Below, one piece after another: positions 9,754 through 50,173 of a stretch of 52,467 nucleotides of DNA (its first letter is position 1; every line of letters starts with the position of its first letter). Origin of the DNA: Paraspadella gotoi (Eukaryota; Animalia; Chaetognatha). The notes beneath the pieces are model-generated. The model was not told the origin of the DNA and ran no database searches. It worked only from the letters and a program-made list of their open reading frames with translations. Both the position numbers and the translations under genes were made by a program. The stretch lies in contig CM119263.1 of assembly GCA_051294375.1 (NCBI GenBank), positions 31,240,358-31,292,824 of the forward strand, written 5' to 3'.

Positions 9754-11600
9754 ATGCAAACAAATACTGGATTTGGTGGGAGACGAGAAGGAGCGAGCTA
9801 TCAGACGGTTCCATCACCAACGATGTCTCTTGTTTTGCCAGTGAGGACGACAAGGGCACAAGGCATCACCCACATTGTGTTGGGCGTCATGATGGTTGGC
9901 TTTCAGATTGCGGCCATCATCGTCCTCGACAATCAAAACCACATTGAGCACAATCACTCGGACTCTGTTCTTGAGGTTGGCTCCGCCATCTGGTGCGGCC
10001 TCTTGGTCATCGGGTGTGGCATCATTGGATGCTGCGCCGCCGCTTATAAAACTAACAACACTGTGAGCATTTTCATATTATTTGTACGAATTTAAAAAAA
10101 TACAGCTTCTCTTATTTTGATGCTAGAGCGGGTTCAATATAGTATTCCTTAATCTAATACCTGAGGGAGTGGTCCTTTCAGACAATTGAAACATTCTTTG
10201 AAATATTATGCCACTTCATTGAAATGCCAGATACTCTGGGAGTAAATAAACGAGTCTTGATTGAAAGCTTGCAGGGTCCTGCTACGTTATTATCTTTTCA
10301 GGACTTAAACCACTTAAGCCTGTCCAATAAGGCGTAGTGAAAGTTACATACGAAAATTCTAAAAGTCAATTATGAACAAAATACCATCAGTGAACATTAA
10401 TTTGTAAAAAAAATTAATTTTATGTTTTTTAATTTTCGCAGTAGGCTATATTTATATATAGTACTATCCTTATAAAATCGAAAAATTTTAAAATAGGTTT
10501 TCTTAATTTTGAATGCAGATTTGAATTCCTCGTCAAAAGTTGATAAAAGAAAATATAAATCATTTTTAAAAATTCTTTCATTAAGTGGGTTAAAAATTAA
10601 AAAGACTATATTTAATATATAAAAAATTAATTTTCAGCGTATTTCTTTTTATCAACTTTTTATGACGAATCCAAATCTGCAAAAAAATCTTAAAAAAACT
10701 GTTTTGAAATTTTAACATTTATTGGTTTAGTACTAGAATAAATAATTAAATATGGCCTACTGCGTAAATTGTAAAATTTATTATAAATATTTTTATTATA
10801 TGAATGTCTATTAATATAATGTTGTTCGTTCCTCACTTTTAGAATTTTAATTAAAGTTAAATTTAGAAATTTTACTACGCCTTACTGTCCAATGTTTATA
10901 GTCAAGGCTCAGATATCTTATTTATTAAATGATTGGATCATTTTTATATTGGTTATACTAATATGATACTATAATTTTCATGCAGCAGCATTTACATACG
11001 GTATCTTTATAGTATAAAGATCCCGTATGTAAATGCTGCTGCCTGAAAAGAAAGAAAAAAGATTCGTAATTGCAGGTGATTGGGTTTTTGATTTTCAACA
11101 TATTTTCACTGATTTTATCGACGACCGTGTTGGGAATGATGGGTGGGGATTTGTCGCAACGCGATGTGATCTATTGCGATCATCGATGGATCAACGACAA
11201 ATACGAGGCTTATAACTGTTCTCCCTCTTACACGCCTTTGATTGCCATGACCTCCGTTCTCTTATTCGCCGCCTTGGTTGTCTTTTCTATCTCCATCTGG
11301 AGTATCGTCTCTTCATCCATTGCTATTCACAAGAGCAACGCTTGCTGTTGTCGTGGCCGTTGTTGTGTCAAGCAAGAGCCTCCCGTTTATGTGTACGGTC
11401 CTCAGCATCGGACGGTGAGTGACGTCTCGCGACTGGAGACGCATGAAAACGCGATGTCGACGCCTTCGATGGGGGAGGTCACGGAACGGGCTTCATTGGC
11501 TCAAGGATATGTTGCCCCACCGCCTTATGCCCCAGCGATGCCTTTACCGAAAGCTCTCGGTCGAGAACGAGCTAATCCTCCTTATCAACAATTGTACTAG
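9754..11600 (+). CDS. MS4A/CD20-like four-TM protein
   Basis: Exons 9754-10062 and 11076-11600 (GT-AG, phase 0); four hydrophobic segments, GSAIWCG motif, Cys-rich juxtamembrane CCC..CC, C-terminal PPPY. Confidence 0.75.
10150..10960 (+). repeat. Interspersed family C element split by a hAT MITE
   Basis: Homologous to ~28090-28260 and, in reverse, to ~15810-16030, ~36660-36830 and ~50235-50345 (aagcctccatcactcttacaagataatg core). Confidence 0.7.
10328..10884. mobile_element. hAT-type MITE (family B)
   Basis: TIRs TAAGGCGTAGTGAAA / TTTTACTACGCCTTA; 8-bp TSD CTGTCCAA at 10320-10327 and 10885-10892; YARNG terminus typical of hAT. Confidence 0.88.
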
Positions 11601-12311: not shown

Positions 12312-15300
12312 ATGAAGTTCTCCGTCGGGATTCGCCTCTTTTCATGCGCAGCTCCTTTGCTGCTCCGCTGCGTCACGACCCCGCGCCCGCTGCTTCGACG
12401 GACTCCTCTTCCGTCGTTCTTTCACTCCGCCTCCGCGAGACATCTATCGTTAACGGACTCATCTTTGACCGACCAATTGCTGACTTATCACGACGACGAC
12501 GAAGATGACGACGTCATCGCTACCGAGGTTTCCATGGATTGCAAAATCACGTTTCAGGCTCGATCCATCGACGAGTTGTTGGATAGGATGCGGAATCTCG
12601 ACCTGCTGTTGCCGCCGCGAGACTTGAAAATTCTCTTCCGATCGAATCAGCGACTGGCGACCAGTCTTATGCCCAGACCCAAAGTACATTGTCCTTTTAA
12701 TTCCGTTGTTTTATTTTTTTTTTTTTATCTCGCCAGACGGCGTTATGGCGTGATAATCGTTTAGAATTGCTTCTTTGTGCCGTCGTTGACATGGTTGTCA
12801 CGCTTTTTATCGTTGATCTTGTAACGCTTTTGTACATAAGTGGCGTCGTCGTCGTTGTCGTCGTCATCGTTATCGGCGTTCCAAATTATAGATCGCCTTT
12901 TTGATGATTAAATTTGGATGTTTGAAGCTGAAAATTTATATACAGCTTCTCATCATCGATGTCTCTTTTCCCCAGTCTCTGATTCATCGGAAAAAACCGA
13001 GTCTGCAGCTGGCTCTGCAGGGGCTTTTCTTTTTCTTTCTTTTCTCCTGCTGCTTCTGCTTTTTTATTTTTTATTTTTGTCTCTTCTCTCTTTTCTTTTT
13101 TAATTATATGTAGCTCTCTCTCTCTCTCTTTTCCCCAGTTGCTGATTCCTTGGGCTCTGCAGGGGCTTTTTGTTTTTCTCTTTTCTCCTGCTGCTTCTGC
13201 TGCTGCCTTTTGATTTCTTTCTTTTTTTCTGGCTGCTTCTGCTGATTTGTCCGAAAACGATTTGGTTAAAAAATTCACCAAATATTTTTGTTTGCAATTT
13301 AAAGAAAATTCTAAATATCAATCAGAATAATATTTTTTTAAATAAATATTTACTTTATTATTTTATTTTACTTTACTTCTCTTTACTTCCCTTAGTCAGT
13401 CTCATTCAAGTTTCACTTTGTCTTTTGTCTGGGAATGCTGACAGTGTTTAGAGAAGTCGCATTCGATCAAACTGCTCGCTTATGCGGGCTAAAAGTAAAA
13501 CAAAAGTTCCTTCAATAATATCTCTCCAGACTTATTTTTCTTATTTTTTATTTTCCTTTCTATTCTTTCTTTCCTTTCTAATTTTTCTTTCCTTTATATT
13601 CTTTCCTTTATATTCTTTCCTTTATATTCTTTCTTTCTTGCTTTTCTATCCTTTTTTCCTTTTTTCCTTTCTATCCTTTTTTCCTTTCTATTCTTTCTTT
13701 CCTTTCTATTCTTTCTTTCCTTTTTATTCTTTCTTTCCTTTCTATTCTTTCTTTCCTTTTTATTCTTTCTTTCCTTTCTATTCTTTCTTTATATTTATTC
13801 TTTTCTTCTTTTTCTTTCTGTTTATAAATTAATTTTCTTTTCTCAAATTTGAATTTTTTTAGTATTATGGTGGACTAAGATCCACCAACCATTCATCAGC
13901 GGCCATTGGTGCCGGAGGCAAGTCAATCGCGTCCCAACCCAAAGGTCCGGGGTTCTAGCCCGGTGGTCGCCTAGCAGTTAAGAGGGACGGGGCGCTTAAC
14001 CCGCCTGTAACATGGTGTTACAGCCTGATCCGAAGCTCAGGGACTGCTTACATTGAACGGTTCTGTCACTAACACATAACAAATATCACTGTCTCTTCAT
14101 TGGTGAGCCCGACTTCCGAACACAACAGCAACAACACTTTCAGGCGACCTGCCTCAACCTGGCGATGCACTTTCCGCCATCAACACATCAGGCGACATGC
14201 CTTAACTTGGTGACAAACTTTCCACCAACAACAATAATTCACTGAAGAGACACAACAGACTTCTCCCTACCGGAGGGGGGGATGTATGGTGGACTAAAAT
14301 CCACCAACCATTCATCAGCGGCCATTGGTGCCGGAGGCAAGTCAATCGCCTCCCAACCCAAAGGTCCGGGGTTCTAGCCCGGTGGTCGCCTAGCAGTTAA
14401 GAGGGACAGGACGCTTAACTCGCCTGTAACTCGGTGTTACAGCCTGATCCGAAGCTCAGGGACTGCTTATATTGAACGGTTCTGTCACTAACACATAACA
14501 AATATCACTGTCTCTTCAGTATCAAAATTTGTCGTCAAGATTTTTCTTAAGCGATTGCTACGATCCTTATGCTTTTAAGATTTTTTTACATTTTTTTAGA
14601 TTATTACGGTTTATATAAAATTGGTACAACCAATATAAAAAATATCCATTTATTTAACAAATAAGCGGGTAACTTTACTATTCGACATCCACAACCAACT
14701 TTAGTTACTACTGGTCGGTACTTTGTTAATCCATTTAATTTTGTTTTCCCTCGAGCTTCGAATCTCAGTTTACGCAATAATATGAATTTTTTTGTTTAGT
14801 AATACTAATTTTATAATAAATAATAATTGTTTTAAATTTATTTTAATTGCTATTTTTATATTTGAGATAGAAAATGAATTGCTTGTTTACGTACAAGTGT
14901 TATAAAGAAACATGAAATTGTGAATTGTCAAAGCACTGATGAAGGCTTGAATGAAAGCCGAAACTTGTCTGTACCATTAAAATAAAAAACCGTTGATGTA
15001 ATAAGACTTCGTCTTGAATCTCAAAAAAGTTTAATCACAAACTCTTTTTTAAAAATTCTTTCATTAAGTTGATCAAATATAAAAAAACTATATTTTAAGC
15101 TGAAAATAAAAATTTTATGTATTAAATATGGTTTTTTTAAATTTTTAACCCACTTAATGAAAAAGTTTTTAAAAATGATTTATATTTTCTTTCATCAACT
15201 TTTGACGAGGAATTAAAATATGAAATCAAAATTCAGAAAAACCTATTTTGAAATTTTACGATTTTATAAGGATAGTTCTATAAATAAATATAGACTTTTA

Positions 15301-18300
15301 TAGTTTACTACAAAAATTGAAGAACATAAAATTAATTTTTTTTATAAATTAATGTTTACTGATGGTATGTTGTTCATAATTGACATTTAGAATTTTTGTA
15401 TGTAACTTTCACTACGCTCTATTGGTTAGGGCTGGTTTTACAGGGCGCCACACCCGCAGCGGTGTCACCTCGTGGCGACAGCGAGACAGCATGTTCATAT
15501 AGTCCAGAGCTTTGGATCTGGCAGTAGACCCATGCCTACAGGCGGGTTACCCGGTCCATCCCACTTTCAACATGACAACCTCAGGGCTCGAACCAGGGAC
15601 GCACATTGGGATGGTGCATTAGTCCACTGAGCTACTGAGGCGCTGCAAAAGAAACAGCTTTAATCCATCTGTGGTGATAGGACCACCAGAAGGGGTTGTT
15701 AGGGTTAAGGTGGTTTATTTTTGCGTAGCGAGATTTTTATATGTCGCTTATAAGAAGCAAAAAAAAAATAACCGACCGAAAAATCTTGGTGGGCGAATGT
15801 AAAAAGAGCCAAATAAGCTATCTTGCCCCTGGACAGGCTTTGGTGGTTCAAAGCCTCCATCACTCTTACAAGATAATGATATAGCAGGTCTCTGCAAGCT
15901 TTCAATCAAGACTCTTTCACAGTCGAGTTTATTCATTCCCAGAGAACTTGGCTTCCCTATCAATGAAGTGGTATAATGTTTCAATTGTATTAAAAGACCA
16001 TTCCCTTAAGTATCAGATCGGGGAATACTATATTGTATTTCGCACTAACATCAAAATACAAGCTGAATTTTTTGAAATCTTTTTTATTAAAAACAGTATT
16101 AACATAATGAAATTGGTACAACCAATAATTATAAAAATTATATAAAGATTATGACGGTTTATAATTTTTTTTATGTAAAAACTACTACAAATTATGATTG
16201 ATTTTTATAAAAGTGTACGATCATTATTTAGTACTGGGTTCCGCGTACAAACGTTGCATTTTTAGACCGCTAAACATAATATTTTTGCCTTTCACGCATT
16301 AAACAACTCTCGATAATTTTTACCAAAAATCTCAAGTAAAGTCACGACACATTTAGGAAAAAAACGACTCTTTCCACTATTGTTCAGTTGTTACTTAAAA
16401 TGTTAATTAACTTTGTACCACAACACAAATTAGGCCGAACGAAGGATTGGTTAGAAACATCTCCACCCATTTCTAATGATAAAATAGTACCATTTTGGCA
16501 ACTTTTAGCCAAAAAAATTATGTCCATTTTTACTTACGACTTCTGATTTGAAAGCCAAGGAAAGTTGAGAAAAATTTTTTACTTTGGAAATCCGTTCTTT
16601 CTTATCTTTTTTACCTCTGGGTAAATTTATTAGCTTAAATCATTTATAGTTTGCCTATGAATTAATTTTAAAGTTAACAAGTCAAAAAGTTGGAGTTTCA
16701 GTCTTTATCATAATTTGTTAAACAAAAATAAAGCAAATTGGTTAAAATTAACAGAAAATATAGCCTATTGAATAAGCTTTTAACACCTATAAAATTATCA
16801 AAAAAACTTTTTTGGTTTAGCCACAAATAATTTTTAAAGACGTCTTTTAATTTGTGACTTTTTGTGACTTGCATTTATTTTTGATAAAGAGAATATTTTC
16901 AACTCATTTATTAGTTTCAAAAGATGAGGTACATACTGACCTTGATTAAAAAAAACCGCATCCTTTTAACCCAATGGAAAGCGTCAGGACCCTTTTTTTC
17001 TCAGAATCGACAGATTTTGCGGAAAAATTTTCCGCAAAATCTGTCGATTTATTAAATTTGCTAGGCAACCAAAATTGAAAAAAAAAATCATGCGCTACCG
17101 TTCATTTTCTTTCTTATAATGCATTTTAAATATTTTATTTGATTTGGCTCGATGTAAACGTAGTGAGAGGAAATAGGAAAGGGAAAACAAGAAAAGGAGA
17201 AGGGGAGAGAATGAAAGAGAGGGTGAAAGGCAAAAAAACGAAGGAAAATGGGGAAAAAATAGTGAAACAATTGTAAGGTAAGAAAAGAGGGGAAAAATGG
17301 AAAGAAAAAGATGGGAAAAATGGAAAGAAAAAGAGGGGGAAAAAAGGGAAAGAATGAAGATGAGAAAAAAAGGTGAGGAAAGTGCATGAGTGACAGAAAA
17401 TGGTAGGGGCCAAAAAAATGGTAAGTGACAGTGTGAGAAGTAAGGGAGGAAAGAGGAAGAGAAAAATATAAAGTAAGAGAAGAAAAGAGGTGAAGAACAA
17501 TAATCAGGAAAAGCGTATGAAGGAAAAAAAATTGTATCAGATAATTTGGCGTCTTACCTAAAATCTTTTGTGTAAGTAAAAGACATGAGGATTCTTATAA
17601 GGAATTCGATCTTTAAAAATCATCTGTACCATAAAAATTCAAGCATACTTTTTTCTAAAATTAAGCAGTTAATGAGATTAGATTGACAATCATTGAAGAA
17701 ATCATGTCTTACCGTATTTTTAACTCATAGAAATTTACATGGGAAGTTCTAAGTGATAAGAAGGAGATAACTTGAGACTACCGTTTTTTTAAATGAAGAA
17801 AGCTTCGTACTAACCAATGAGATCAAAAAATATGGTAATTATTGAAGTTCAGATTTCGTTGTTTAAAAGATACTGATTGTATGCGAAACCACTGTTATTA
17901 GTTAGCCTCAGCTGAAAATAAATCTATCTCCAAGACGCCGAGTTGATAACGTAATTGTTGATGTAATCGCCAATTGATGAGAATGTGTGGTTGATGTGGT
18001 TGTTAAGAACTTAGTAATGATTGATTTTTATAAAAGTCTACGATCATAATAAGTGAAAAATTTAGATATGGGTTCTCATCTTTAAGATCTTTGAAATTGT
18101 TACGTTTCATATTGATTGGAATATTTTTGTTTGAATTTCCTTCTCATTATGATTTACTGCAATATACAAATTAGAATATAGTACTTACTGCAATATGAAA
18201 ATTAATATATAATATACTATATTCTAATTTGCATATTGCAGTAAGTCAAAATATTAAAAAAATTTAAAAAAAAAATACTTGAATCCATATGAAACATGAC

Positions 18301-21300
18301 AGTTTAAAAGATCATGATGATGAGAAGCTATATCTTAATAATCAATTATTATTGCGTCAATAATCAATTACTACATCAATAATTCATTATCACATTAATC
18401 ATTCATTTTTTTTCCGGATTTTTTTATTAATTTTCTTTGATAGTAACGTCTGGCGAGATAACTTTACTTTTAAGATTTTTTTGTAAGATTTAAAATGAAA
18501 TACTCTTCCCCCCTCTTTCCCACCAAAGTCCCGATGTTTCTTGCTGGAGATCGAGCATCTTTCGCTGATTTGCCTGAAGGACCGCTGCATTATTCTCAAT
18601 CCCCGCGACGAGATTGTCAAGAGTTTTGTGGAAGATTTATGCTACTATCGATTGGGCAACAAGGATTCGACCGAGGAAAGGTAAATATAGTAAAGCTTGT
18701 AATATGGTTGTTACTAAGTCTACTTGAGTACTTAGTCCTTAAGGCGCCCCAGTGATAAAAATGATATCATAAACATAAGGGTCTATCATCAAAGGAATTT
18801 GAATGGTGATAATTGTTAATTTTTCTTTGCACGGGAAAGTGGAGAAAAATATTTTCATCTCCTAGTTGCATTGCGAACAAGGATGAGAAAATTTTTAATT
18901 GATCTCCCCGAGATACTGATACAGTCCATCCTCTTACTTTCTCTTAGGAAATCATTTTTTCATAAATTATAAGTGATATTATGGTAACAGCCGGGTTGCC
19001 TGTGATGACCATTGGGATGGGGCATCTTCACTGTTAGCTTTGGGGCTTCCGATCCTTAGTGACGTTTGGGATGTTGCCTTCCCCTCTGAGCCAATGATAT
19101 TGGCTGAACGATGGTGGTCGTGAGGCCTCAATATTATCTCCTTCATATGCACAAAGAAAAGTATAAAAAAAAACCAAATCCTGTGGCCTCATGTCCACCA
19201 TCGTTCAGCCAAATCCATTGGCTCAGAGAGGGGAACACACCATCCCAGGCATAGTGTTCCATCCACAGTCCTAACGACTTCCCTCTGCGTTGGCAAAGCT
19301 AGACCGTCCTAGGGTAACCGCGCCAGTGACTGGAGGCGTCACTGAGGGTCGAAAGCCCCAAAGCCAACAGTGAGATGCCCCATCCCAATGGGCATCACAG
19401 GCAACCCGGCTGTTGCCATAATCCCTATTTTAACTTGCAGTCCAAAGCCCAAGACTAAGGGTTCCAACAAACCGACGGCGCGAGACTATCACAAGATGTT
19501 AACATGCAGCATCCAAAAGATGGACTTTGAACACGTTGTGCTCGAACAGGCATTGGCCAACATCACCGCCAGATACACTAGACACGTGGAACTGACGAAA
19601 CCAACTCTGGAGCTGCTTCTTTATCAAATTGAACTCGATCCCGCTGTCTCCATGCTGCGCCGACTGTTGGCCTTCAGAAAGAGTTTGATTGAGTTTGAAA
19701 CGGGTGTCCATCAGGTAGAATGGTCAAGATTGGAATTCCTGTCTTAGTAGTTATTAAGGCGTCGTTAGTTGCAGATCAAAAATTCGAATAGTTCATGAAC
19801 ACTGAAGTCTTGTACTAACGAACAATGATATCTTTGATAGACGGGGGAGGCGGATCCTCGTATCCGCTGACGATATATAAAAAATTTTATCGTCGCAATC
19901 GCTAAGCACTTGCGATGATATTGTATTGCTTTTGCCCATAAGTGGCGTCGTCGTCGTCGTCGTCGGCGTTCCAAATTATAGATCGCCTTTTTTATGATTA
20001 AATTTGGGTGTATGAAGCTGAAAATTTATATACAGCTTCTCATCATCGATGTGCTTAAAATTGAGTCTCGACAGTTATTAAATATGTTTTGTTTACGTTT
20101 TATCAAAACAAACAAATTTTCCTTTTTATTTTCATATTTGTTTCTCTCTCTCTTTTCTCTTTTAATTACATGTCTCTCTCCCTCTCTCTTTTCCCTAGTC
20201 ACTGATTCATAATCATAGGGAAAAAAACGAGCCTGCAGCTGGCTCTGCAGGGGCTTGTTCTTTTTCTCGCTTTTCTCCTGCTGCTTCTGCTGCTGCCTTT
20301 TGAGTCTGCAGCTGGCTCTGCAGTGGCTCTTTCTTTTTCTCTCTTTTGAATTAGGATTGAACTCGTAAAATTAGGCATCGCATTCGTGCATGTTATCATT
20401 TTGCTATTTTTCAGAAACTGTAAGTTTAATTTTTTTCCGTACTTTATTATATTTTCTTTATTAACAATCGCAAAATAGAATTTTTCTTTGTTTATAATTT
20501 AATTTTCTTTTTTTTAGTATCAAAATTTGTCGTCAATCCAGATTTTTCTTATGCTATTGCGACGATCCTTATGCTTTTAAGATTTTTTTAAAATTTCTTA
20601 ATTTTCGCATACGCCCATAGTTATACATAGTATCTACCATAGAAAATGTCAAAATTTAAAAATAGTTTTTTTGTTTTTGTTTTAAAAGCAGATTCGAATT
20701 TCTCATAAAAGTTGAAAAAAGAAAATGTCTTAATAAAAAATTTTTTCATTAAGTTAGCTAAAAATTAAAAAAATATATATATATACTAAAATTAAATTAG
20801 AGGTTAACTATAACAGTTTTTTAGGATTTTTACCCACTTAATGAAATAATTTTTTAAAAAGAGTTTTCTTTTTATCAACTTTTCGTGAGGAATTCGAATC
20901 CGCTTTCAAAATTAAGAAAAATCTATTTTAAAATTTTAACATTTTCTATGGGCGTATACGAAAATTGAGAAATTTTTAAAAAAAATTATATATCAATGTT
21001 TACAGATTCTACTTGATTTTAATAATTTTGCTACGCTTTAGTAGTTATTGATGGTTAAATCAAATAATTTCTTTGTTTAAGTTGTGCCACGTCTTGGAGA
21101 ATCTCCTCAACAGCGACGAGGATATGGCGGGATTTTACCTGACTTCGCCCGTCGAAAATATCGCCGACCACAACGAAGTGGAGCTTTTAGTTGAAGCTTA
21201 TAGTCATGACCTCGGTGATATCGTCAGTGAAATCAAGACGATGAAGGTCGGTGACATGGCTTATCTTCCTGGGATTTCAGGTTTCGTAAAGTACTTGATT

Positions 21301-22979
21301 AAAGTTATTGGAAAATTTGGTTTACAACAACGGCTGTTTTAAATTGTAGAGAAAAATAACGGACATGTTTTGATTTTTTTGTAAGAGTTCATCAATGCAA
21401 AACAAAAAGTTGAAAATCAGTTTAAAAAAATATTTTGTGTGTGTGAGAGAAATGAAACAATTTAACTTGGTCATTTACCAAACCTTACCCTTACCAATGT
21501 ACTGTGGATAAAGCGCTAAGTGGGGCTGAAGAGTACTATCCGCAACTTCTTCAACCCCCTCGAGCAGCGATGGAACGGGTCCTGGGCTTGGAACCAGGCT
21601 TAAGGGTTTTCCACGCCCCCCAAATAGGGACCAACTCCAGAGATAATATAAAATTTCGACTATTATCAAAGTATTTTTAGTTGTCTTGACTAAATATTTA
21701 AGCAATCATTTTCAAAAAAAATTTACATAATACGTCTTGATTAATACATTAAATATTACTTGTCTTTTTTTACATTATAAAAAAATTTTTTTGAAATCTT
21801 AAAATATAAAAAAATGATAAAATCATCGAAAAATATTTAAAATAGAATTATACTTTGTGTAGACAACTTTTTATGAGCTATCTGAATCTAGTCTTACAAT
21901 TTTAAAATTATCAAAAAAAATTTTGGCCTTTCCTATTTATAAATAATATTAAAAAAATAATTTTTTGGGTATAGAGCCACATAAGAAATGTTTTTGTCTA
22001 TTGAAAGTATACTTTCAAAATGTATAAATTTTCGTTTGAGCATGTAGTCATTCTAAATTTTTGACTCACCCCATTGAGTGGAGCTACCCCTACCCTAAGG
22101 CGGCTTAAGGCCGTCCTCACGCTTCCCGTAGGGTAGGTACTAAGTGGTCATGTGCTGATGGCTTTATTCAATGAGCCACCGGGTCACGACTGAAGGTGTC
22201 ATGCTTATAGTCGGGGTGAACCTAGGCAATGCCCGACTACAGTACTACAATAGCAAATTAAAAACTCTGTATTTTTACTGTAAATTATTTGGTTAATTAA
22301 ATGAGTTTGTAAAAAAAATAAGACAAATTGAGAAAAAATGAACTCGGAAAGAGAAATATGTAGATGGTGTAGTTGCTCCCCCCACAATTAAATTCCTCAT
22401 TAAAACCACTTTTCTTCAAGAACATTTTTTTTTTTTTTTTTTAAGGACATGGTTGAGGAAACAAACCAGTTCATCAACACTCACCTCGACACGGTCCGCA
22501 ATCGCCTCATACGCATGGGCCTCTTCATGGACATGGCCATGATGTCGTTGACCGTCTCCGCCGTAATTGCCAGCGTCTTTGGAATGAATCTCGTCAACGG
22601 TCTCGAGAACAGGCCGGCCGCTTTCTTCGTCGTCGTCAGCGTCATGACCGGATTGACGGTCGGCGTCTATTCTATCATCTTCATCAAATACGTTCGCAAC
22701 ATCGGCGACGCCTCCACGGCCCATTCCTACGTGGCCCTCAAGAACTTCTTTCAATACGTGGACGAGTTGGATCGTATCGTGGAGTTGAAGGGGAAATCCA
22801 GTTTCACCAAGACGGATTTCAAGGAAGTTCTCGTCGGCCTCACGGGGACTAAAGTGACCAGCGACGAGGCGGAATTCATCTTTAAGATGTTCGACGTTAA
22901 TAAAGACGGGACCTTGAATCTGGAAGAAGTAAAACTGGAGTCGGCGAAGAGGAAAAACAGGAAGATTAACATGTGGTGA
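12312..22979 (+). CDS. MRS2: Mitochondrial Mg2+ channel MRS2 (CorA family) with C-terminal EF-hand
   Basis: Exons 12312-12683, 18529-18680, 19441-19714, 21082-21246, 22446-22979 join in frame; Arg-rich targeting peptide, LPPRDL, FEHVVLE, LLNSDEDMAGFYLT, EVELLVEAY, LDTVRNRLI, FGMNL signature, two TMs, DVNKDGTLNLEE. Confidence 0.9.
13899..13970 (+). ncRNA. tRNA-derived head (degenerate Pol III A/B box) inside the LTR; second copy 14318-14389
   Basis: 72 nt; acceptor-like stem GCGGCCA/TGGTCGC; T-arm CCGGG-GTTCTAG-CCCGG; anticodon arm is not intact, so not a functional tRNA. Confidence 0.7.
13973..14048 (+). ncRNA. Twister ribozyme, P5-type circular permutation (5' LTR)
   Basis: P5 AGCAGU/ACUGCU; AAGAGG-G-A-CGG; U^AA-CCC-GC; P3 UGUAAC/GUUACA; P4 CCUGA-UCCGAAGC-UCAGG; pseudoknot CGG/CCG; predicted cut between 13997 and 13998. 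Confidence 0.75.
14392..14467 (+). ncRNA. Twister ribozyme, P5-type (3' LTR); one pseudoknot mismatch
   Basis: Same fold as 13973-14048, but CAG replaces CGG in the pseudoknot; predicted cut between 14416 and 14417. Confidence 0.65.
14933..14972 (+). ncRNA. Minimal type I hammerhead ribozyme (Penelope-like element type)
   Basis: GCA-CUGAUGA-A-GGCUU-GAAUGA-AAGCC-GAAAC-UU-GUC^-UGU; predicted cut after 14969; AATAAA ~10 nt downstream. Confidence 0.75.
15040..15420 (-). mobile_element. Truncated hAT MITE (family B), inverted relative to 10328
   Basis: Reverse complement of ~10330-10620, ending ...gtatgtaactttcactacgc; other end not found. Confidence 0.7.
15433..15690 (-). mobile_element. Solo LTR or SINE-like element with tRNA head plus twister, a divergent relative of the TRIM LTR
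   Basis: Minus strand: 5' hairpin TGGTG-GTCCTAT-CACCA (LTR has TGGTGGA-CTAAGA-TCCACCA), A box TAGCTCAGTGG, B box GGTTCGAGCC, then twister; boundaries approximate. Confidence 0.65.
15490..15574 (-). ncRNA. Twister ribozyme, P5-type
   Basis: CAUGUU-G-AAAGUGG-G-A-UGG-ACCGGG-U^AA-CCC-GC-CU-GUAGGC-AUGG-GUCUAC-UG-CCAGA-UCCAAAGC-UCUGG...AACAUG; compensatory changes relative to the LTR copy. Confidence 0.75.
15810..16030 (-). repeat. Interspersed family C copy
   Basis: Matches 36660-36830 and 50235-50345 in the same orientation, and 10150-10325 and 28090-28260 in reverse. Confidence 0.7.
18065..18333. mobile_element. AT-rich foldback/MITE
   Basis: Imperfect arms gatatgggttctcatc...gtttcatattgatt / aatccatatgaaac...gatgagaagctatatc, plus inner arms tttactgcaatat / atattgcagtaag. 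Confidence 0.6.
18978..19422. mobile_element. GC-balanced foldback element with ~150-bp inverted arms
   Basis: attatggtaacagccgggttgcctgtgatg... / ...catcacaggcaacccggctgttgccataat; right arm has a ~90-bp insert (~19250-19337); possible TA TSD. Confidence 0.8.
19755..21040. mobile_element. hAT-type MITE (family B) with nested HINE-like element
   Basis: Ends TAAGGCGTCG / GCTACGCTTTA; 8-bp TSD GTAGTTAT at 19747-19754 and 21041-21048. Confidence 0.85.
19885..20588 (+). mobile_element. Full-length non-autonomous Helentron (HINE/DINE-1-like), family A
   Basis: 5' subTIR ATCGTCGCAATCGC (19889-19902) with nearby partner TTGCGATGAT; (GTC)n microsatellite; 3' subTIR GCTATTGCGACGAT (20553-20566), short CTTA..TAAG hairpin, T-rich flanks, no TSD. 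Confidence 0.72.
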
Positions 22980-23952: not shown

Positions 23953-30934
<6,982 letters not shown>

Positions 30935-32305: not shown

Positions 32306-35270
32306 AATTGACTACTGCACCCATTTTTAAAACCGCGGAAAAATCGAATAATCGAGTTAATTTTAATGACTAGAAATAAAAAAGCGCAGTAAAACAAACG
32401 TAAAGATAACAAATGAGCAATGATCAATGAACGGAATTTTTGTTCCATTCTTTTGGGGGCCCTGCGATTAAACTCCACAAAGCTGATAAAAGATATGAAT
32501 ATTATTGAGTGACGAACATCTTTTTGAGATTTACAAACGAACGACATCATTCTCACTTTTAAAGAAACTCGTCATAAGATGTTGCAAGCCGATTTGGTCC
32601 CAAAGCTTGGAAAAGATTGACTTGACCAGCTGAAAATATTTTTTGACAAAGATTATTATGTGGTGAAATTTTATTAAAAAGATAATTTCTGTCACCGTTT
32701 GAATCGTTATTTGGTTGAGATATGACTTTATCATCTCTGTTTTTCTACCAGCAAAGTTTTGTGGCGTCAGTTTGTACACGGGCTAAAACAAGAACTTAAT
32801 ATTTAACAAAATAAATGGACGAATTCTGGTCGCATTTGTTTAAAATGTATATCTTAAATGGTGAATATAAAAATTTTCCCTTAGAAAATGTGCTTGGTCA
32901 TGTTCAGAGTTAACTAGGTTCTGCGGTGACAACTCTAATCTCTGACAACTCTAATCTCTCACTCATCTCTCTTCATCTCTGCGTTGACAACTTTACAGAC
33001 GACTTCATATTAGAAAATGCTCTTAAGTTAAGACATTAATGCAAATGATCTCATGAAAAAAAATTTCTTTTTTTTAAAAAAAATTCTGTTCATTCTTTGC
33101 CCCCCTGGAGTGACCCTGTATCGTACCTCAGGGGTAAAATATTGAAAATCGCCTTGATTGTCCCATTTCTACGGCTATTGGGATACTGAACGCAAAATCG
33201 TATCAAATTTGGTTCAGTGATTTGGTCAGAACTGATTCTCGGTTCGAAAAAACCTTCTGTAATCTCTGACAACTCTAATCTCTCTTCACCTCTGCGTTGA
33301 CAACTCTAATCTCTGGTTTCTTCCCTCTCATCTTTCGCCACTTGTGCTTTGGCTTTACGTGCCAAGGATCCTTCTTCGGTTTGGGTCTTTCCTTTCAATA
33401 AAATATAAATAAATATTTTATATGCAAATAATTTGAGAACGCAGACTTGTCACCTCTTGAGTGGTGATCCTTCGATACTCAAACCAATCGAACCATCCTT
33501 TTCTTCTCTTTTCTGTCGTCGATCTTTCCACCTGAGATTTGAAATCATTTCCCGTTGAGTCTTCTTTCCTTCCTTCTCTTTCCTTTTTTCCTTCAGCTCT
33601 ACGAGTCTACGACCCGGCCATGAGTTTCATCCGGGGGTTTCATCATGTCGTTCCTCGTTGCCGTCGGGTGGTTCAGTCCTCAAGATTATTCGTATTAAAA
33701 TGAACAAATTTGACCTTTTTTTTCGGCAACTTTTTTTTTAACTCACTCAATGATCGGGAATCCACGAAGGTTTTATCTCGAGTCGCCAAGAAAAGAATCG
33801 ACGCCATGAGCCATTTTTCTTTTTCTTTCCATCTCATGATCTTTTGGAAAAGAAAATTTCTTTTTTAATCGATACCTAGTCTTAAATTCTGTTCGGTCAA
33901 ACAGTACGTAGTTTTTGTTTAATTCATCTCAGTGAACTGTCATGTAATTAAATTGAAAATGTTCAGGTAGTTTCTACAATGTCTTTTCTTGAATTAAATA
34001 TGGTTTAGTCTTGCAATCATTGTGATCAAACTTTTTTTTACTTCATTTCCAAATGATTATAATAACTCAAGTTTTTCTTTCTTATCTTACATTATACATA
34101 CTCTTATGCTACTCAAAATACTGTTATAATACTTTAATATATTTATGATTTTTATTTAAAAGTATGATTAGTAATATTTAAACTTTCATAATAGTAATCT
34201 TAGGTAATTTGTTATTAGTATAACGGACATATATGGCACTATCACATTTTTAGTATGATTTACACATTTCACCGTAAATGTGATCCTACTCTATTTTAAG
34301 TAATTTTGAAATTCAACATAATTTAACAAGTGACGCGATGAAATATGGCACGAGTCTAATTCTTAATATTATTTAGACTATTGTATATTATAAGATAACA
34401 TACGTAGCTCCAGCAATCTGGCAATACATCATTCCTCTACATCTCTCTCCTCCACATCCATGAATTCGTTGCCATTTTCTCTTCTTCAAAATGATTATTT
34501 CCCGCAAAACGAAAGATGTCGATCTCCTCTCTCTCTTCTTCCTTCAACCGCGCCCAATCTCGTCACGACATCTCGCTTCTCGAATAGAATATCATTCTGT
34601 TACGTCGTTCGGTTTCATTCGACTCTGTTCGTGTCAAGACTCATAGTTTTTCTTCCACCCGCCCGCTCGATCGGGGCCGCGTTATTTTCTTTGTATTTGG
34701 TCTTTATCTGTTGGCTCGATCGGGGCCGCGTTGAGATCCGCTCCGTCCCGTGGACTCGACAGCCCGGACTTTGAAGGAAGAGAGAGAGAGAGAGCCACGT
34801 TGGGTCTCTTTAAGCTGTCGTCGTCTCGTTTGAATTAATTGGTGATGATATGTCTTAATATTGAGTTCATGGTGTCGTCGTTAATTTCTCGTGGGACGAT
34901 TTTAATTATTTTCTTGTTTTATTAATTGATATTTATTATATTGATTACTCGATTCGTTTTTGACGCTCGGGCGTGAGTTCGCAAGTCACATCCGCCGACG
35001 ACCGCCCTTTCACTATTTATAGAATTGGTTCAACCGATATGATAAATTAGCCATTCATTCCACAAATAAAAAATAAACAATCTTTTAATATTTTTCTTGG
35101 TCGTCGACATTTTTTCTTTAGTTGCGAAAATCTCTTTTTTTTTGTCTTAAGTTTTATCTTTGTCAGTTTATTATACATTGTCCACATTCCCAGGTCATTT
35201 GATATAAATTCATCCGCTCAATACTTTTTACATCGAATCCAAATCCAAACTTTTTCTTTTCTTTCTCACG

Positions 35271-47500: not shown

Positions 47501-50173
47501 CCAGCAGGTTTGGCCTATTTTCGTTTTTTCTCGAAAATCCAATGTTTTATTTCAATCGTGAAAATTCAGCCGATACCTCGGACGATTCTAAACCGGCCCA
47601 TCCTGATCGACCCACTGCTTTGCAATTGCAAGTGGCCAAAGTGGTTGTGAGCAACACGCGCTCGGAGCCCGGGATGGGCGTGGCCGAATTGCGCGCGAGC
47701 TGGCGTCATGTCTTGACGCGCGGGTCGATGTTCGCGGGCGACGACTTCCCGCGCGCAGATCACGACCTGCAGGATCTGCCCTCCTGTTGGTCCGAGTTTC
47801 TCGCTGTCGCTAATTTGCTCAGACTCAACATCGTTCCGTCCACAGAAGATGGAAACGGTAATGAGGAAGGGAAGGTAGGATGGAATGAAAGAGGGAAGGA
47901 AAGAAGGAAGGAAGAAAGGAAGGAAAGAGGGCGAGAAGGAAGGAAGGAGGGAGGGCGAGAAGGAAGGAAGAAAAGAAAGAGAGGAAGGAGTGAGGAAAGA
48001 AAGGCAGGCGGGCAGGCAGGAGGGAGAGGACTTAACTCTTGTAAGGGGAAACGACAAAAGTCGACACTAAAGCGTACCAAAAATATTAAAAACAAGTAGA
48101 CTCAAAATTCGAATAGTAGATCAGGCTTGTAAATAAAAAAAAAAATTTCAATTTTCGCATAAGCCCATATTTATACATAGTACTTGCCATACAAAATGTC
48201 AAAATTTTAAAACGGTTTTTTCTTATTTTTAAAAGCAGATTCGAATTCCTCAGGAAAGTTGATAAAAGGAAATATAACTCTTTTTAGAAAATTATTTCAT
48301 TAAGTGGATCAAAATCCTAAAAAACGTTTATTATTAACCTTGTAATGATTTTCTTTCTTTTCGTTAATTTAGAAATTTTTAGGAATATCAGTTTTTGTGT
48401 TTTAACGAATTTTTAAATTTTTAAACTATGATTAAAAATTCGTTAAAACACAAAAACTGTTATTCCTAAAAATATTATTAACCTATATTTAAATTTTAGT
48501 ATAAAAAAGTTTTTTAAATTTTTAGCAAACTTTATAAAAAAAAAATATAAGTCAATCAAAAATTCTTTCATTAACTTTTCATGAGAAATTCAAATCTGCT
48601 TTCAAAACTAAGAAACATTATTTTAAAATTTTAACATTTTCTATGGTTAGTACTATGTATAAATATAGGTGTATGCGAAAATTGAGAAACTATAAAAAAT
48701 TTTTTTATATATCAATGTTCTTTAGTCCAAGACTGTTCCTGATTAACTATTCGAATTTTGATCTGCAACTTTCACTACGCCTAAGTCGACACATATAGTT
48801 GTCGTAGAATAAATACATTTGTCGTAGAATTTAGAATTTATGTACGCATTAATTCCACCAAACTAACTTTTTTTATTCGGGGTTTCAAACTGGCTCTATT
48901 TTTTGATTAGTGTTAGTGTTTATTTATTATTATTTATAAATAATAAATTTCAAATTAGACGAGGTCCTTTCTTCCTCCAGCGCCTGACGCCGGCCTCGAA
49001 ACGCTGCGCACGAATTCGCTCAAGCAACTGGCCGACGAAGACATTTGGTGCGTTTCCCTCAACCAAGTCTGGGCGGATTTCACTGGGATAAAAAGGTGAG
49101 ATTTTAAGAGGAATTAACTAAGAAACTCGTCGTCAGTCAAACTCGAATAATTGCGACAATCCTCAGTTGCCGCGGCGGCCGCCTGCCTTTCCTCGATGCC
49201 TTTTCCTCAACTCTCTGGCTGTGCTCGCCGCGGCCGAACCTCTTCACCGCCGGCGAGACTCTCTTTCCTCCAGAAATTCCCTCCGCCACGCCGCCCGCCC
49301 ACGACCGCCTCCTCCCGAACGGGTTTACGGACGATGTGGACGCCGCGCCGCTGGCGCATCCCGACGCCACCACGCCCGACGTTGCCGCCATTTTCGTCTG
49401 CGACGAGCGCCTCTCAGTTCAGTTGGATCATTTTCAGTTCCTCTTTCTCGTTCGACTCGCCGACGCCGCCGCCGACGCGCAGAAGCAGGTGGAGAGTGAC
49501 GTGGAGCGGATCACGGGTGAGTCATGCTCGGGGGAAGGTATTGGGGAAAGTAAAACAGTTGGCTCATCGAAAAACGACTTACTGCTCACTTTGAGTCACC
49601 CACTTTGAACCAACGAAATAATATTACTCACGATTTATCATTAAAAACTAGTTTTGCCTTTCAACAAAAAAATTGTTAAGGATTTACCCCTAAAAAAGTA
49701 ATAAATTTTGCAAATAAAATGTAACTCATAAAAGATGTACGCTTGACAATAAAATGATCCACGACTCATTAAAAAACTAAAAAAATTATCCGGGTTGACA
49801 TACATTTAATGGGAAAACGACTCGCATCTGACTAAGATGCAGAAAACCAGAAAATCTGACTCAAACTCTTTTTCTTTCTTCTTCTTCTCCTCCTCCTCCT
49901 CCTCTCCATTTCTCACCCACAAAGGTCATTCGCCTCACGAAGATGCGAAGACCCTCTCCTTGGTTTCGCTCCTCCCTCCCGTCGACGTCTTCTTTGTCCA
50001 TCCGCCCGTCGTCGTCAACGGCGGCATCGACGCCGACATGACGCCGCTTCCGCCGCCGGCGCCCGGCGCCAATCGGTCTCGCGCCGCCACGGATGTCGCC
50101 ACGCCGGATCTTGTCAAGACGCCGGACGCGATGAGTTCCGAAGTCGAAGGCGCCACCAACTTGGGATTTAAGG
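44550..50173 (+). CDS. BLTP3: Bridge-like lipid transfer protein family member 3 (UHRF1BP1/UHRF1BP1L), partial; continues beyond the traced exons
   Basis: Chorein-N start MASLIKNQILKHLAKFTKNLSPDKI; ELPLWL, IQWTKLKSEPI, DYYPYHLAG, HLEFSEYYFPEG, HVDVRFEAIMPKVVVP; exons traced to the donor at 50173. Confidence 0.9.
48068..48784. mobile_element. hAT-type MITE (family B)
   Basis: Ends TAAAGCGTACC / TTCACTACGCCTAA; 8-bp TSD GTCGACAC at 48060-48067 and 48785-48792; long internal inverted arms. Confidence 0.87.

Follow-up and report, generated by a model that had tools for sequence, protein, structure and literature searches.

A likely solo long terminal repeat with a predicted tRNA-derived promoter and a predicted self-cleaving twister-type fold in an intron of the chaetognath Paraspadella gotoi

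The stretch of DNA analysed here (hereafter, the window) comprises 52,467 nucleotides (nt) of contig CM119263.1 of Paraspadella gotoi (assembly GCA_051294375.1, positions 31,240,358 to 31,292,824), and the element under study is a repeat copy of 261 bases on its minus strand, at 15430..15690, which lies antisense within an intron of about 5.8 kb of an MRS2-like gene whose flanking exon matches end near 12690 and start at 18499. An original prediction from the letters of the sequence had placed the element at 15433..15690 and proposed at least two subfamilies; the location stands, while the homology of the family reaches 15430 and the family itself is 6 nt longer than this copy, and the window carries five families (A to E) with a twister-like fold, the copy under study representing family B. 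We interpret it, with a probability of roughly 60%, as a damaged copy, likely a solo long terminal repeat (LTR), of a small non-coding LTR retroelement in which a tRNA-derived, predicted RNA polymerase III (Pol III) promoter is followed by a predicted self-cleaving twister-type fold, and which would follow a replication cycle resembling that of LTR retrozymes.

Every part named in the original prediction (hairpin, tRNA head with A and B boxes, and twister, in this order) was located on the minus strand. The 5' terminal hairpin (TGGTG..CACCA, 15688-15672) is in register with the start of the LTR of the neighbouring element A. The tRNA-like head (15578..15641), with acceptor-like arms and an anticodon-like hairpin (15619-15599), holds the A box (15634-15624) and B box (15594-15585) of the predicted Pol III promoter; folding of this head gave a z score of -2.2, and ARAGORN reported no tRNA gene in the window, the head of B included. 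The type-P5 twister-like fold extends over 15496..15574 and comprises P5, P2, the G-A, the pseudoknots T1 and T2, P3 and P4/L4. Read 5' to 3', the hairpin and the A and B boxes are followed by P5a, GUGG, the G-A, UGG, the 6-nt slot, U15549^AA, CCC, GCC, P3, P4 and P5b. The 7-bp P5 joins 15574-15568 with 15502-15496 and has two defects private to this copy; the G-A stands at 15560-15559; the T1' strand UGG (15558-15556) pairs with CCA; the P1 slot ACCGGG (15550..15555), with its self-complementary core CCGG, is predicted to pair with a second copy; the predicted cut, at a U^AA site, is U15549^A15548; P3 lies at 15539-15524, and the 5-bp P4 with its loop UCCAAAGC at 15521-15504. The 3' part of the LTR-like unit (15430..15480), which may resemble the ends of RTE elements, forms two more hairpins, after which the family goes on with TCTTCA. 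The self-complementary P1 slot, the missing P1 hairpin and the 3-bp P2 with a bulge were absent from the original prediction.

Family B has the type-P5 hallmarks U^AA, G-A, L4 (U-N3-AA-GC), T1 (CCA:UGG, 3 bp), T2 (GC:GC, 2 bp), P4 and P5, and thus shares with the published type-P5 twister the U^A site, the G-A, a 3-bp T1, a 2-bp T2, the U-N3-AA-GC L4, P4, an optional P3 and termini in P5 (PMC5408937; PMC8501958, Table 1); comparisons with the literature refer, here and below, to the accessible parts of the sources cited. It differs from that twister in P2, where a regular 4-bp helix is replaced by 3 bp with one bulged base in A, B, D and E and by 4 nt in C, in P1, where in place of an intramolecular hairpin B has a 6-nt self-complementary slot in which no monomer P1 pair is favoured, and in its sub-threshold Rfam score. 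Natural twisters tolerate imperfections of P1 and P2 (PMC11662667). Nothing in the window, hammerheads included, reached the Rfam gathering score, and because the fold lies below the Rfam twister thresholds it was filed as what, judged by its sequence features, it is: a twister variant and not a member of Rfam twister-P5. Self-cleavage of the B-type fold is predicted with good confidence.

The closest point of reference is element A (13866..14518, plus strand), a complete, 653-bp, two-LTR terminal-repeat retrotransposon in miniature (TRIM). Its LTRs (13866-14099 and 14285-14518) are 234 bp each and 96.6% identical; a TGG resembling a primer-binding site (PBS) occurs at 14101, one base past LTR1, a G-rich polypurine tract (PPT) directly precedes 14285, and a 4-bp target-site duplication (TSD), GTAT, was confirmed by two empty-site paralogues. 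Both LTRs carry the twister motif, which is damaged in LTR2, and the predicted cuts after 13997 and 14416 would delimit a 419-nt monomer. Folded as a circle, this monomer gave a z score of -2.7, none of 100 shuffles being as stable. The sense strand of A is devoid of runs of four T, and the only such run in B lies upstream of the tRNA head.

When A-LTR1 and B were registered on fixed landmarks, they differed at 9 of 28 paired positions, and eight of these nine differences fell in four of the 14 core pairs, each changed on both sides and still paired (three Watson-Crick, one G.U). Thirteen of the 14 core pairs are kept (P=9e-5 under random placement; 0.004 if Watson-Crick pairs alone are counted), the sole lost pair being a U.U at the base of P3, as also found in Schistosoma twisters (PMC8501958); the P1 slots of A-LTR1 and B add one further paired change. 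An alignment of four rows had 84.9% of its cells paired, against 75.0+/-2.5 in shuffled controls and 30-47% with slid partners, the P3 of family C being out of register in this alignment, which lowers the P3 counts. Across families A to E, changes that leave the pairing intact affect all three T1 pairs (each on both sides at least once), T2 (in family D), P2, P4 and P5. None of the five has lost the catalytic G, UAA at the cleavage site, L4 or either pseudoknot, while the flanks diverge. The changes of T1 from CGG:CCG to UGG:CCA, of P4 from U-A to A-U and of P3 that had been described relative to LTR1 are all borne out. The proposed selection on RNA structure likewise finds support in the permutation test, the pair counts and the paired changes in T1, T2, P2, P4 and P5 across three further families, and the structural alignment put forward as a check, run on A/B and on the four rows, found pairing kept more often than in shuffles. 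The invariance claimed for UAACCCGCC holds relative to LTR1; it fails relative to LTR2, which differs at one position and has a broken T1.

A twister descriptor that is structure-aware, permits a 3-nt P2 and was written after the copies were known returned two strict matches in the window (A-LTR1 and B) against none in 300 block shuffles, and in relaxed form four matches against five in 300 shuffles. A metagenome scan with a pattern combining B box and twister gave 12 matches, none with a complementary T1, which were counted as chance and served as a negative control; a viral-contig scan with an A/B twister pattern gave no match.

The P1 slots of the five families, GGCGCU (A-LTR1), ACCGGG (B), UCCUAGGG (C), AGGCCU (D) and CGGCCU (E), are all different and all self-complementary. 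Being 6- to 8-mers, they are too short for a hairpin, and these two properties together lead to the prediction of a domain-swapped double twister in which two copies share P1. The slot self-duplexes were computed at -8.3 (A-LTR1), -8.1 (B), -11.0 (C), -9.1 (D) and -8.7 kcal/mol (E); the value of B is reached by 54 of 4096 hexamers (54 of the 1408 GC-rich ones), and 12 of 236 chance descriptor matches had a self-complementary slot core. Family D serves as an independent test of the slot, in that a covariance model retrieved it without a palindrome criterion after the idea had been noted: its slot is a perfect palindrome in three of the four window copies and, at the position of the fourth, in 96-100% of sequencing depth. 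The 5' half of E came from a palindrome-filtered search (nine matches against 3.9 expected) and is not independent in this respect. With the pseudoknots unscored, the swapped dimer beats two monomers by 10.3 (B), 11.7 (A-LTR1) and 13.4 kcal/mol (C), of which the P1 duplex provides 7.2, 8.6 and 9.9 kcal/mol, respectively. On these models, pairing of P1 between two copies is the arrangement towards which we lean. It is reminiscent of the type I hammerheads found as dimers in Penelope-like elements and in the non-LTR retrozymes of animals, in which a short palindromic helix (helix III; PMC4209133) forms only between two copies and has been proposed to limit cutting to multimers (PMC4209133, PMC7761336); the ribozyme class and the helix are others there, the helix here being P1 and its setting true LTRs.

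Whether family B consists of solo LTRs or of short interspersed elements (SINEs), a question raised by the original prediction, was addressed with four sequencing runs (X1, X4, X7 and X9, of which X7 is only guessed to be RNA and supports no conclusion on expression) aligned to 15405-15745. Summed depth in X4 amounted to about 340,000-660,000 over the B element against 77-308 on its flanks, and X1, X7 and X9 behaved alike; this is not a copy number, but it indicates that family B is very abundant. At five positions private to the B copy, another letter accounts for 97-100% of the depth summed over contigs in each of the three DNA runs. Three of these changes (15528, 15569 and 15499) weaken P3 and P5, where the majority sequence is fully Watson-Crick, so that the G.U in P3 and both P5 defects are private to this copy. 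The remaining variants stay below about 10% in the DNA runs, and family B is therefore young.

In all four runs, family B reads continue past 15430 with TCTTCA and then enter variable flanks; TCTTCA is the terminus of LTR A and also follows the twister of E. B and LTR A are 70.5% identical over about 112 nt (E about 1e-6), and B starts in the same register as LTR A in a whole-LTR alignment, which misplaces family C and was used for this A/B register only. The distance from start to predicted cut is 132 nt in A, 142 in B, 134 in C and 136 in E. The tRNA head of B begins 45-50 nt inside the element and not at the 5' terminus as in SINE2, no A-rich or microsatellite 3' tail of the SINE2 kind was found in B, and no tandem repeat stands at its end. 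No fall in depth is seen 5' of the predicted cut (563k against 513k in X4, 81k against 94k in X1, 17k against 34k in X9, equal in X7), which speaks against a one-copy SINE, since a single-copy SINE with a self-cleaving motif would, it has been argued, cut off its own head and promoter (PMC5786205). A 4-bp CCCT repeat at B, combined with a short later deletion, would fit a TSD. The shared 3' terminus, sharp ends, internal tRNA head, missing tail and even depth across the cut thus point to a solo LTR, and by its sequence B probably is one.

The model that in our view best accommodates these features, and that we favour over others, is that of an LTR retrozyme in an animal, driven by a Pol III promoter, in which the architecture of Helenus TRIMs would be combined with the logic of plant retrozymes and a twister would take the place of the hammerhead. 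Transcription by Pol III would begin at the tRNA head in the 5' LTR and run on through the two-LTR element, and two twisters, likely paired through P1, would cut the transcript at sites 419 nt apart in A. The released monomer would have no terminal redundancy or R region and would carry the promoter of the 3' LTR. It would be closed into a circle by a host ligase, and the reverse transcriptase of an autonomous LTR element would copy the circle from the PBS across the junction, in line with the model for plant retrozymes (PMC4918200). A circular RNA step appears somewhat more probable than its absence. Full-length precursors would be cut well, and circles and solo LTRs in host introns, being single-copy, would be cut poorly, so that introns would be spared. 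Element A is itself sense-oriented in a host intron, and its LTR2 twister is altered in T1, the slot and P2, damage that might reflect selection against cutting of the host pre-mRNA. The internal region of A also contains a 10-nt complement to the 3' end of the LTR.

Several observations weigh against this interpretation. The stems were taken from the same few sequences and the families share ancestry, so that the pairing figures given above represent support and not proof, and variation inside family B is too small to show covariation. At E<=10, Rfam gives no twister at B or A, and at C only a partial twister-P1 match (14 bits, E 3.2). Nearest-neighbour folding does not favour the fold (z +0.2 for the twister alone), and in the LTR context P4 has a probability of 0.76 and P2 and P3 of about 0, minimum free energy folding being uninformative for a double pseudoknot. 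The A box of A is degenerate, its B box being present, and the slot and T1 of A-LTR2 are broken, leaving no predicted probability for a cross-LTR P1 in A itself. Family B showed neither an internal region nor a PBS, a PPT or a clean TSD; the B copy lacks the last 6 nt of the family, and the precise position of its 5' end is uncertain within a few nt (agreement of loose ends 0.42-0.62). Finally, P1 is dispensable in vitro (PMC5408937).

This last point bears on the possibility that the element is as described and its twister is active as a monomer, the slot closing as a short loop to give a mini-twister without P1 and the palindrome being a relic or serving RNA dimerisation for packaging. Cutting by monomers could indeed occur, because P1 is not needed in vitro and natural type-P1 twisters tolerate P1 and P2 defects (PMC11662667); in a large set of the latter, P1 imperfections do not reduce cleavage, and Schistosoma T-variants do without P1 (PMC8501958). 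Five distinct self-complementary sequences exactly in the P1 slot, one of them in family D, which has no visible tRNA head or LTR, argue otherwise, as does the rarity of such cores among chance descriptor matches, and we regard an exclusively monomeric twister as unlikely. Rather improbable, too, is that family B is a tRNA-derived SINE or a dispersed or tandem non-LTR retrozyme monomer, related to LTR A and moving without PBS or PPT. Pol III-transcribed SINE-like repeats with ribozymes exist (PMC6765202), the flanks of B differ among contigs at both ends and the family has no internal region in sight, but the position of the tRNA head well inside the element, the missing tail, the TCTTCA end and start register of a proven LTR and the lack of truncation at the cut site all run counter to such an origin.

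The fold could also be conserved and yet non-catalytic, acting as a structural element or a packaging signal of an ordinary TRIM of the Helenus type with normal R-region strand transfer, for which the short P2 and missing P1, the lack of an Rfam match, folding models that do not favour the active fold and copies that are not truncated at the cut site might be invoked. That five families with diverging flanks all retain the catalytic G, UAA at the cleavage site, L4 and the two pseudoknots makes such a role highly improbable. Mere chance likeness to a twister might be suspected of so few sequences matched by a descriptor tuned after they were known; with no strict match in 300 shuffles, no complementary T1 among the metagenome matches and paired changes recurring in five families, it is largely refuted, and we give it next to no weight.

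Set beside known systems, the proposed element comes close to the LTR retrozymes of plants (Cervera et al. 2016, PMC4918200), which are non-coding and have a ribozyme in each LTR, PBS, PPT, a 4-bp TSD, solo LTRs and a cut-to-cut monomer without R region; of these features, A has the twister motif in both LTRs, damaged in LTR2, as well as PBS, PPT and TSD, B is the likely solo LTR, and the monomer is predicted. The present element differs in its animal host, its twister-type fold in place of a type III hammerhead, the tRNA-derived promoter in the LTR and the smaller size of A (653 bp, with a 419-nt monomer). It would, by analogy, work like an LTR retrozyme and is not one as defined, having no type III hammerhead. 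Animal hammerhead repeats are described as having neither PBS nor PPT (PMC4918200), and a 2026 preprint places LTR retrozymes primarily in plants (10.64898/2026.07.22.740005). With Helenus/TRIMp3 (Kojima 2024, PMC10886601), the shared features are those of a TRIM of less than 1 kb with tRNA-like A and B boxes in the LTR, PBS, PPT, a 4-bp TSD in animals, solo LTRs and TA..CA termini, the latter found among the wasp families of Helenus; of these features, A has two LTRs, PBS, PPT and the GTAT TSD, B has both tRNA boxes, and C has 4-5-bp repeats. The accessible text on Helenus mentions no twister or ribozyme, and among the animal LTRs inspected by eye, the tRNA part is placed close to the 3' end before a short tail, with one ctenophore exception, whereas here it sits in the 5' third, ahead of a twister of about 80 nt. 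Six short motifs searched for in the available Helenus supplement gave just one match, to an unrelated 5S-derived Ajax sequence. The T-variants of Schistosoma Perere-3 (PMC8501958) are likewise twisters in an animal retroelement with an altered or missing P1; they are of type P1 and mark the 5' end of a non-LTR element, whereas the type-P5 fold described here is internal to an LTR and its copies are not cut back.

A literature search, run on a collection with few subscription journals and no Repbase and covering parts of the sources found, brought up neither a twister within a true LTR nor a ribozyme in Helenus, nor any twister dimer in nature with a palindromic P1. The LTR retrozymes known from plants carry hammerheads, and the TRIMs known to have a tRNA promoter carry no ribozyme; if one element combined the two features, circular-RNA retrotransposition would reach animal LTR elements. 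Its tRNA-type promoter would fill a gap, retrozymes seeming to lack a promoter according to one review (PMC7761336), and a function would be assigned to eukaryotic type-P5 twisters missed by Rfam. If true, a natural two-copy twister would amount to an RNA switch that senses copy number, and hammerheads and twisters would have converged on cleavage restricted to multimers. More tentatively, and with clear reservation, we suggest an undescribed class of animal LTR retrozymes, namely Pol III-driven TRIMs that have split into four or more LTR families within a single genome and whose twister is an obligate dimer with a palindromic P1. In this class only a two-LTR transcript would be cut to a unit-length circle, circles and the numerous solo LTRs of host introns would remain uncut, and the twister module was perhaps captured from a non-LTR repeat similar to family D.

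The other families are represented as follows. Family C is an LTR-like unit (19182..19421, plus strand) with a degenerate tRNA-like head and a twister with a 4-nt P2, an 8-nt self-complementary slot at 19307-19314 and a predicted cut after 19315. A second, internally deleted copy lies on the minus strand (18980..19130), and 4-5-bp direct repeats flank each of the two. Separated by about 50 bp and arranged head to head, these copies make up a large imperfect palindrome, which lies some 60 bp upstream of an MRS2-like exon. A covariance model of A, B and C gave two weak additional matches (E 0.051 and 0.054), which led to families D and E. Family D has a decayed twister directly upstream of B (15815..15874, minus strand), further twister copies at 28144-28210(+), 36766-36706(-) and 50272-50195(-), and fragments near 10090-10296, 10911-10975, 14610-14666 and 35012-35069. 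Its four twister-bearing window copies, all damaged, have no P3 and a T2 (AC:GU) altered on both sides, and no tRNA head was seen in them. The D repeat is deeper than B in the runs, and its tail motif appears again about 300 bp upstream of the D twister, as in a permuted or tandem unit; D may represent a non-LTR retrozyme or a pseudo-LTR of the Penelope-like kind, and the twister module might have come from it. Family E (21527..22241, minus strand) starts with a hairpin, followed by an A-box-like motif and a twister with T1 UCC:GGA and a predicted cut after 22107, and has TCTTCA at 21532-21527. A 416-bp insert of 19% GC (22058-21643), of which the window holds no other copy, splits this twister inside a long P3; the ends of E are ambiguous and no TSD was confirmed for it.

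A 9-nt loop, CAUCCCAAU, is common to B (15619-15599(-), in the tRNA-like head) and C (19374-19396(+), 3' of the twister), on different stems. Short CCCTAA-like repeats surround the B copy, which on its 3' side adjoins a member of a palindromic, AT-rich family resembling miniature inverted-repeat transposable elements (10324-10848, 15096-15425, 20590-20951 and 48148-48791). Seven host genes recognised by Pfam lie between 7194 and 49600 of the window (sulfotransferase, CD20-like, MRS2-like, SMC hinge, COPG, SPC25 and BLTP3), all on the plus strand, an arrangement suggestive of operon-like clustering. One COPG exon reached 93-94% identity with its best protein matches and 76-79% with most named animal proteins, and a search with BLTP3 gave no match. 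The MRS2-like magnesium transporter (22443-22976(+)), of which just three relatives were found, has an EF-hand pair at its C-terminus.

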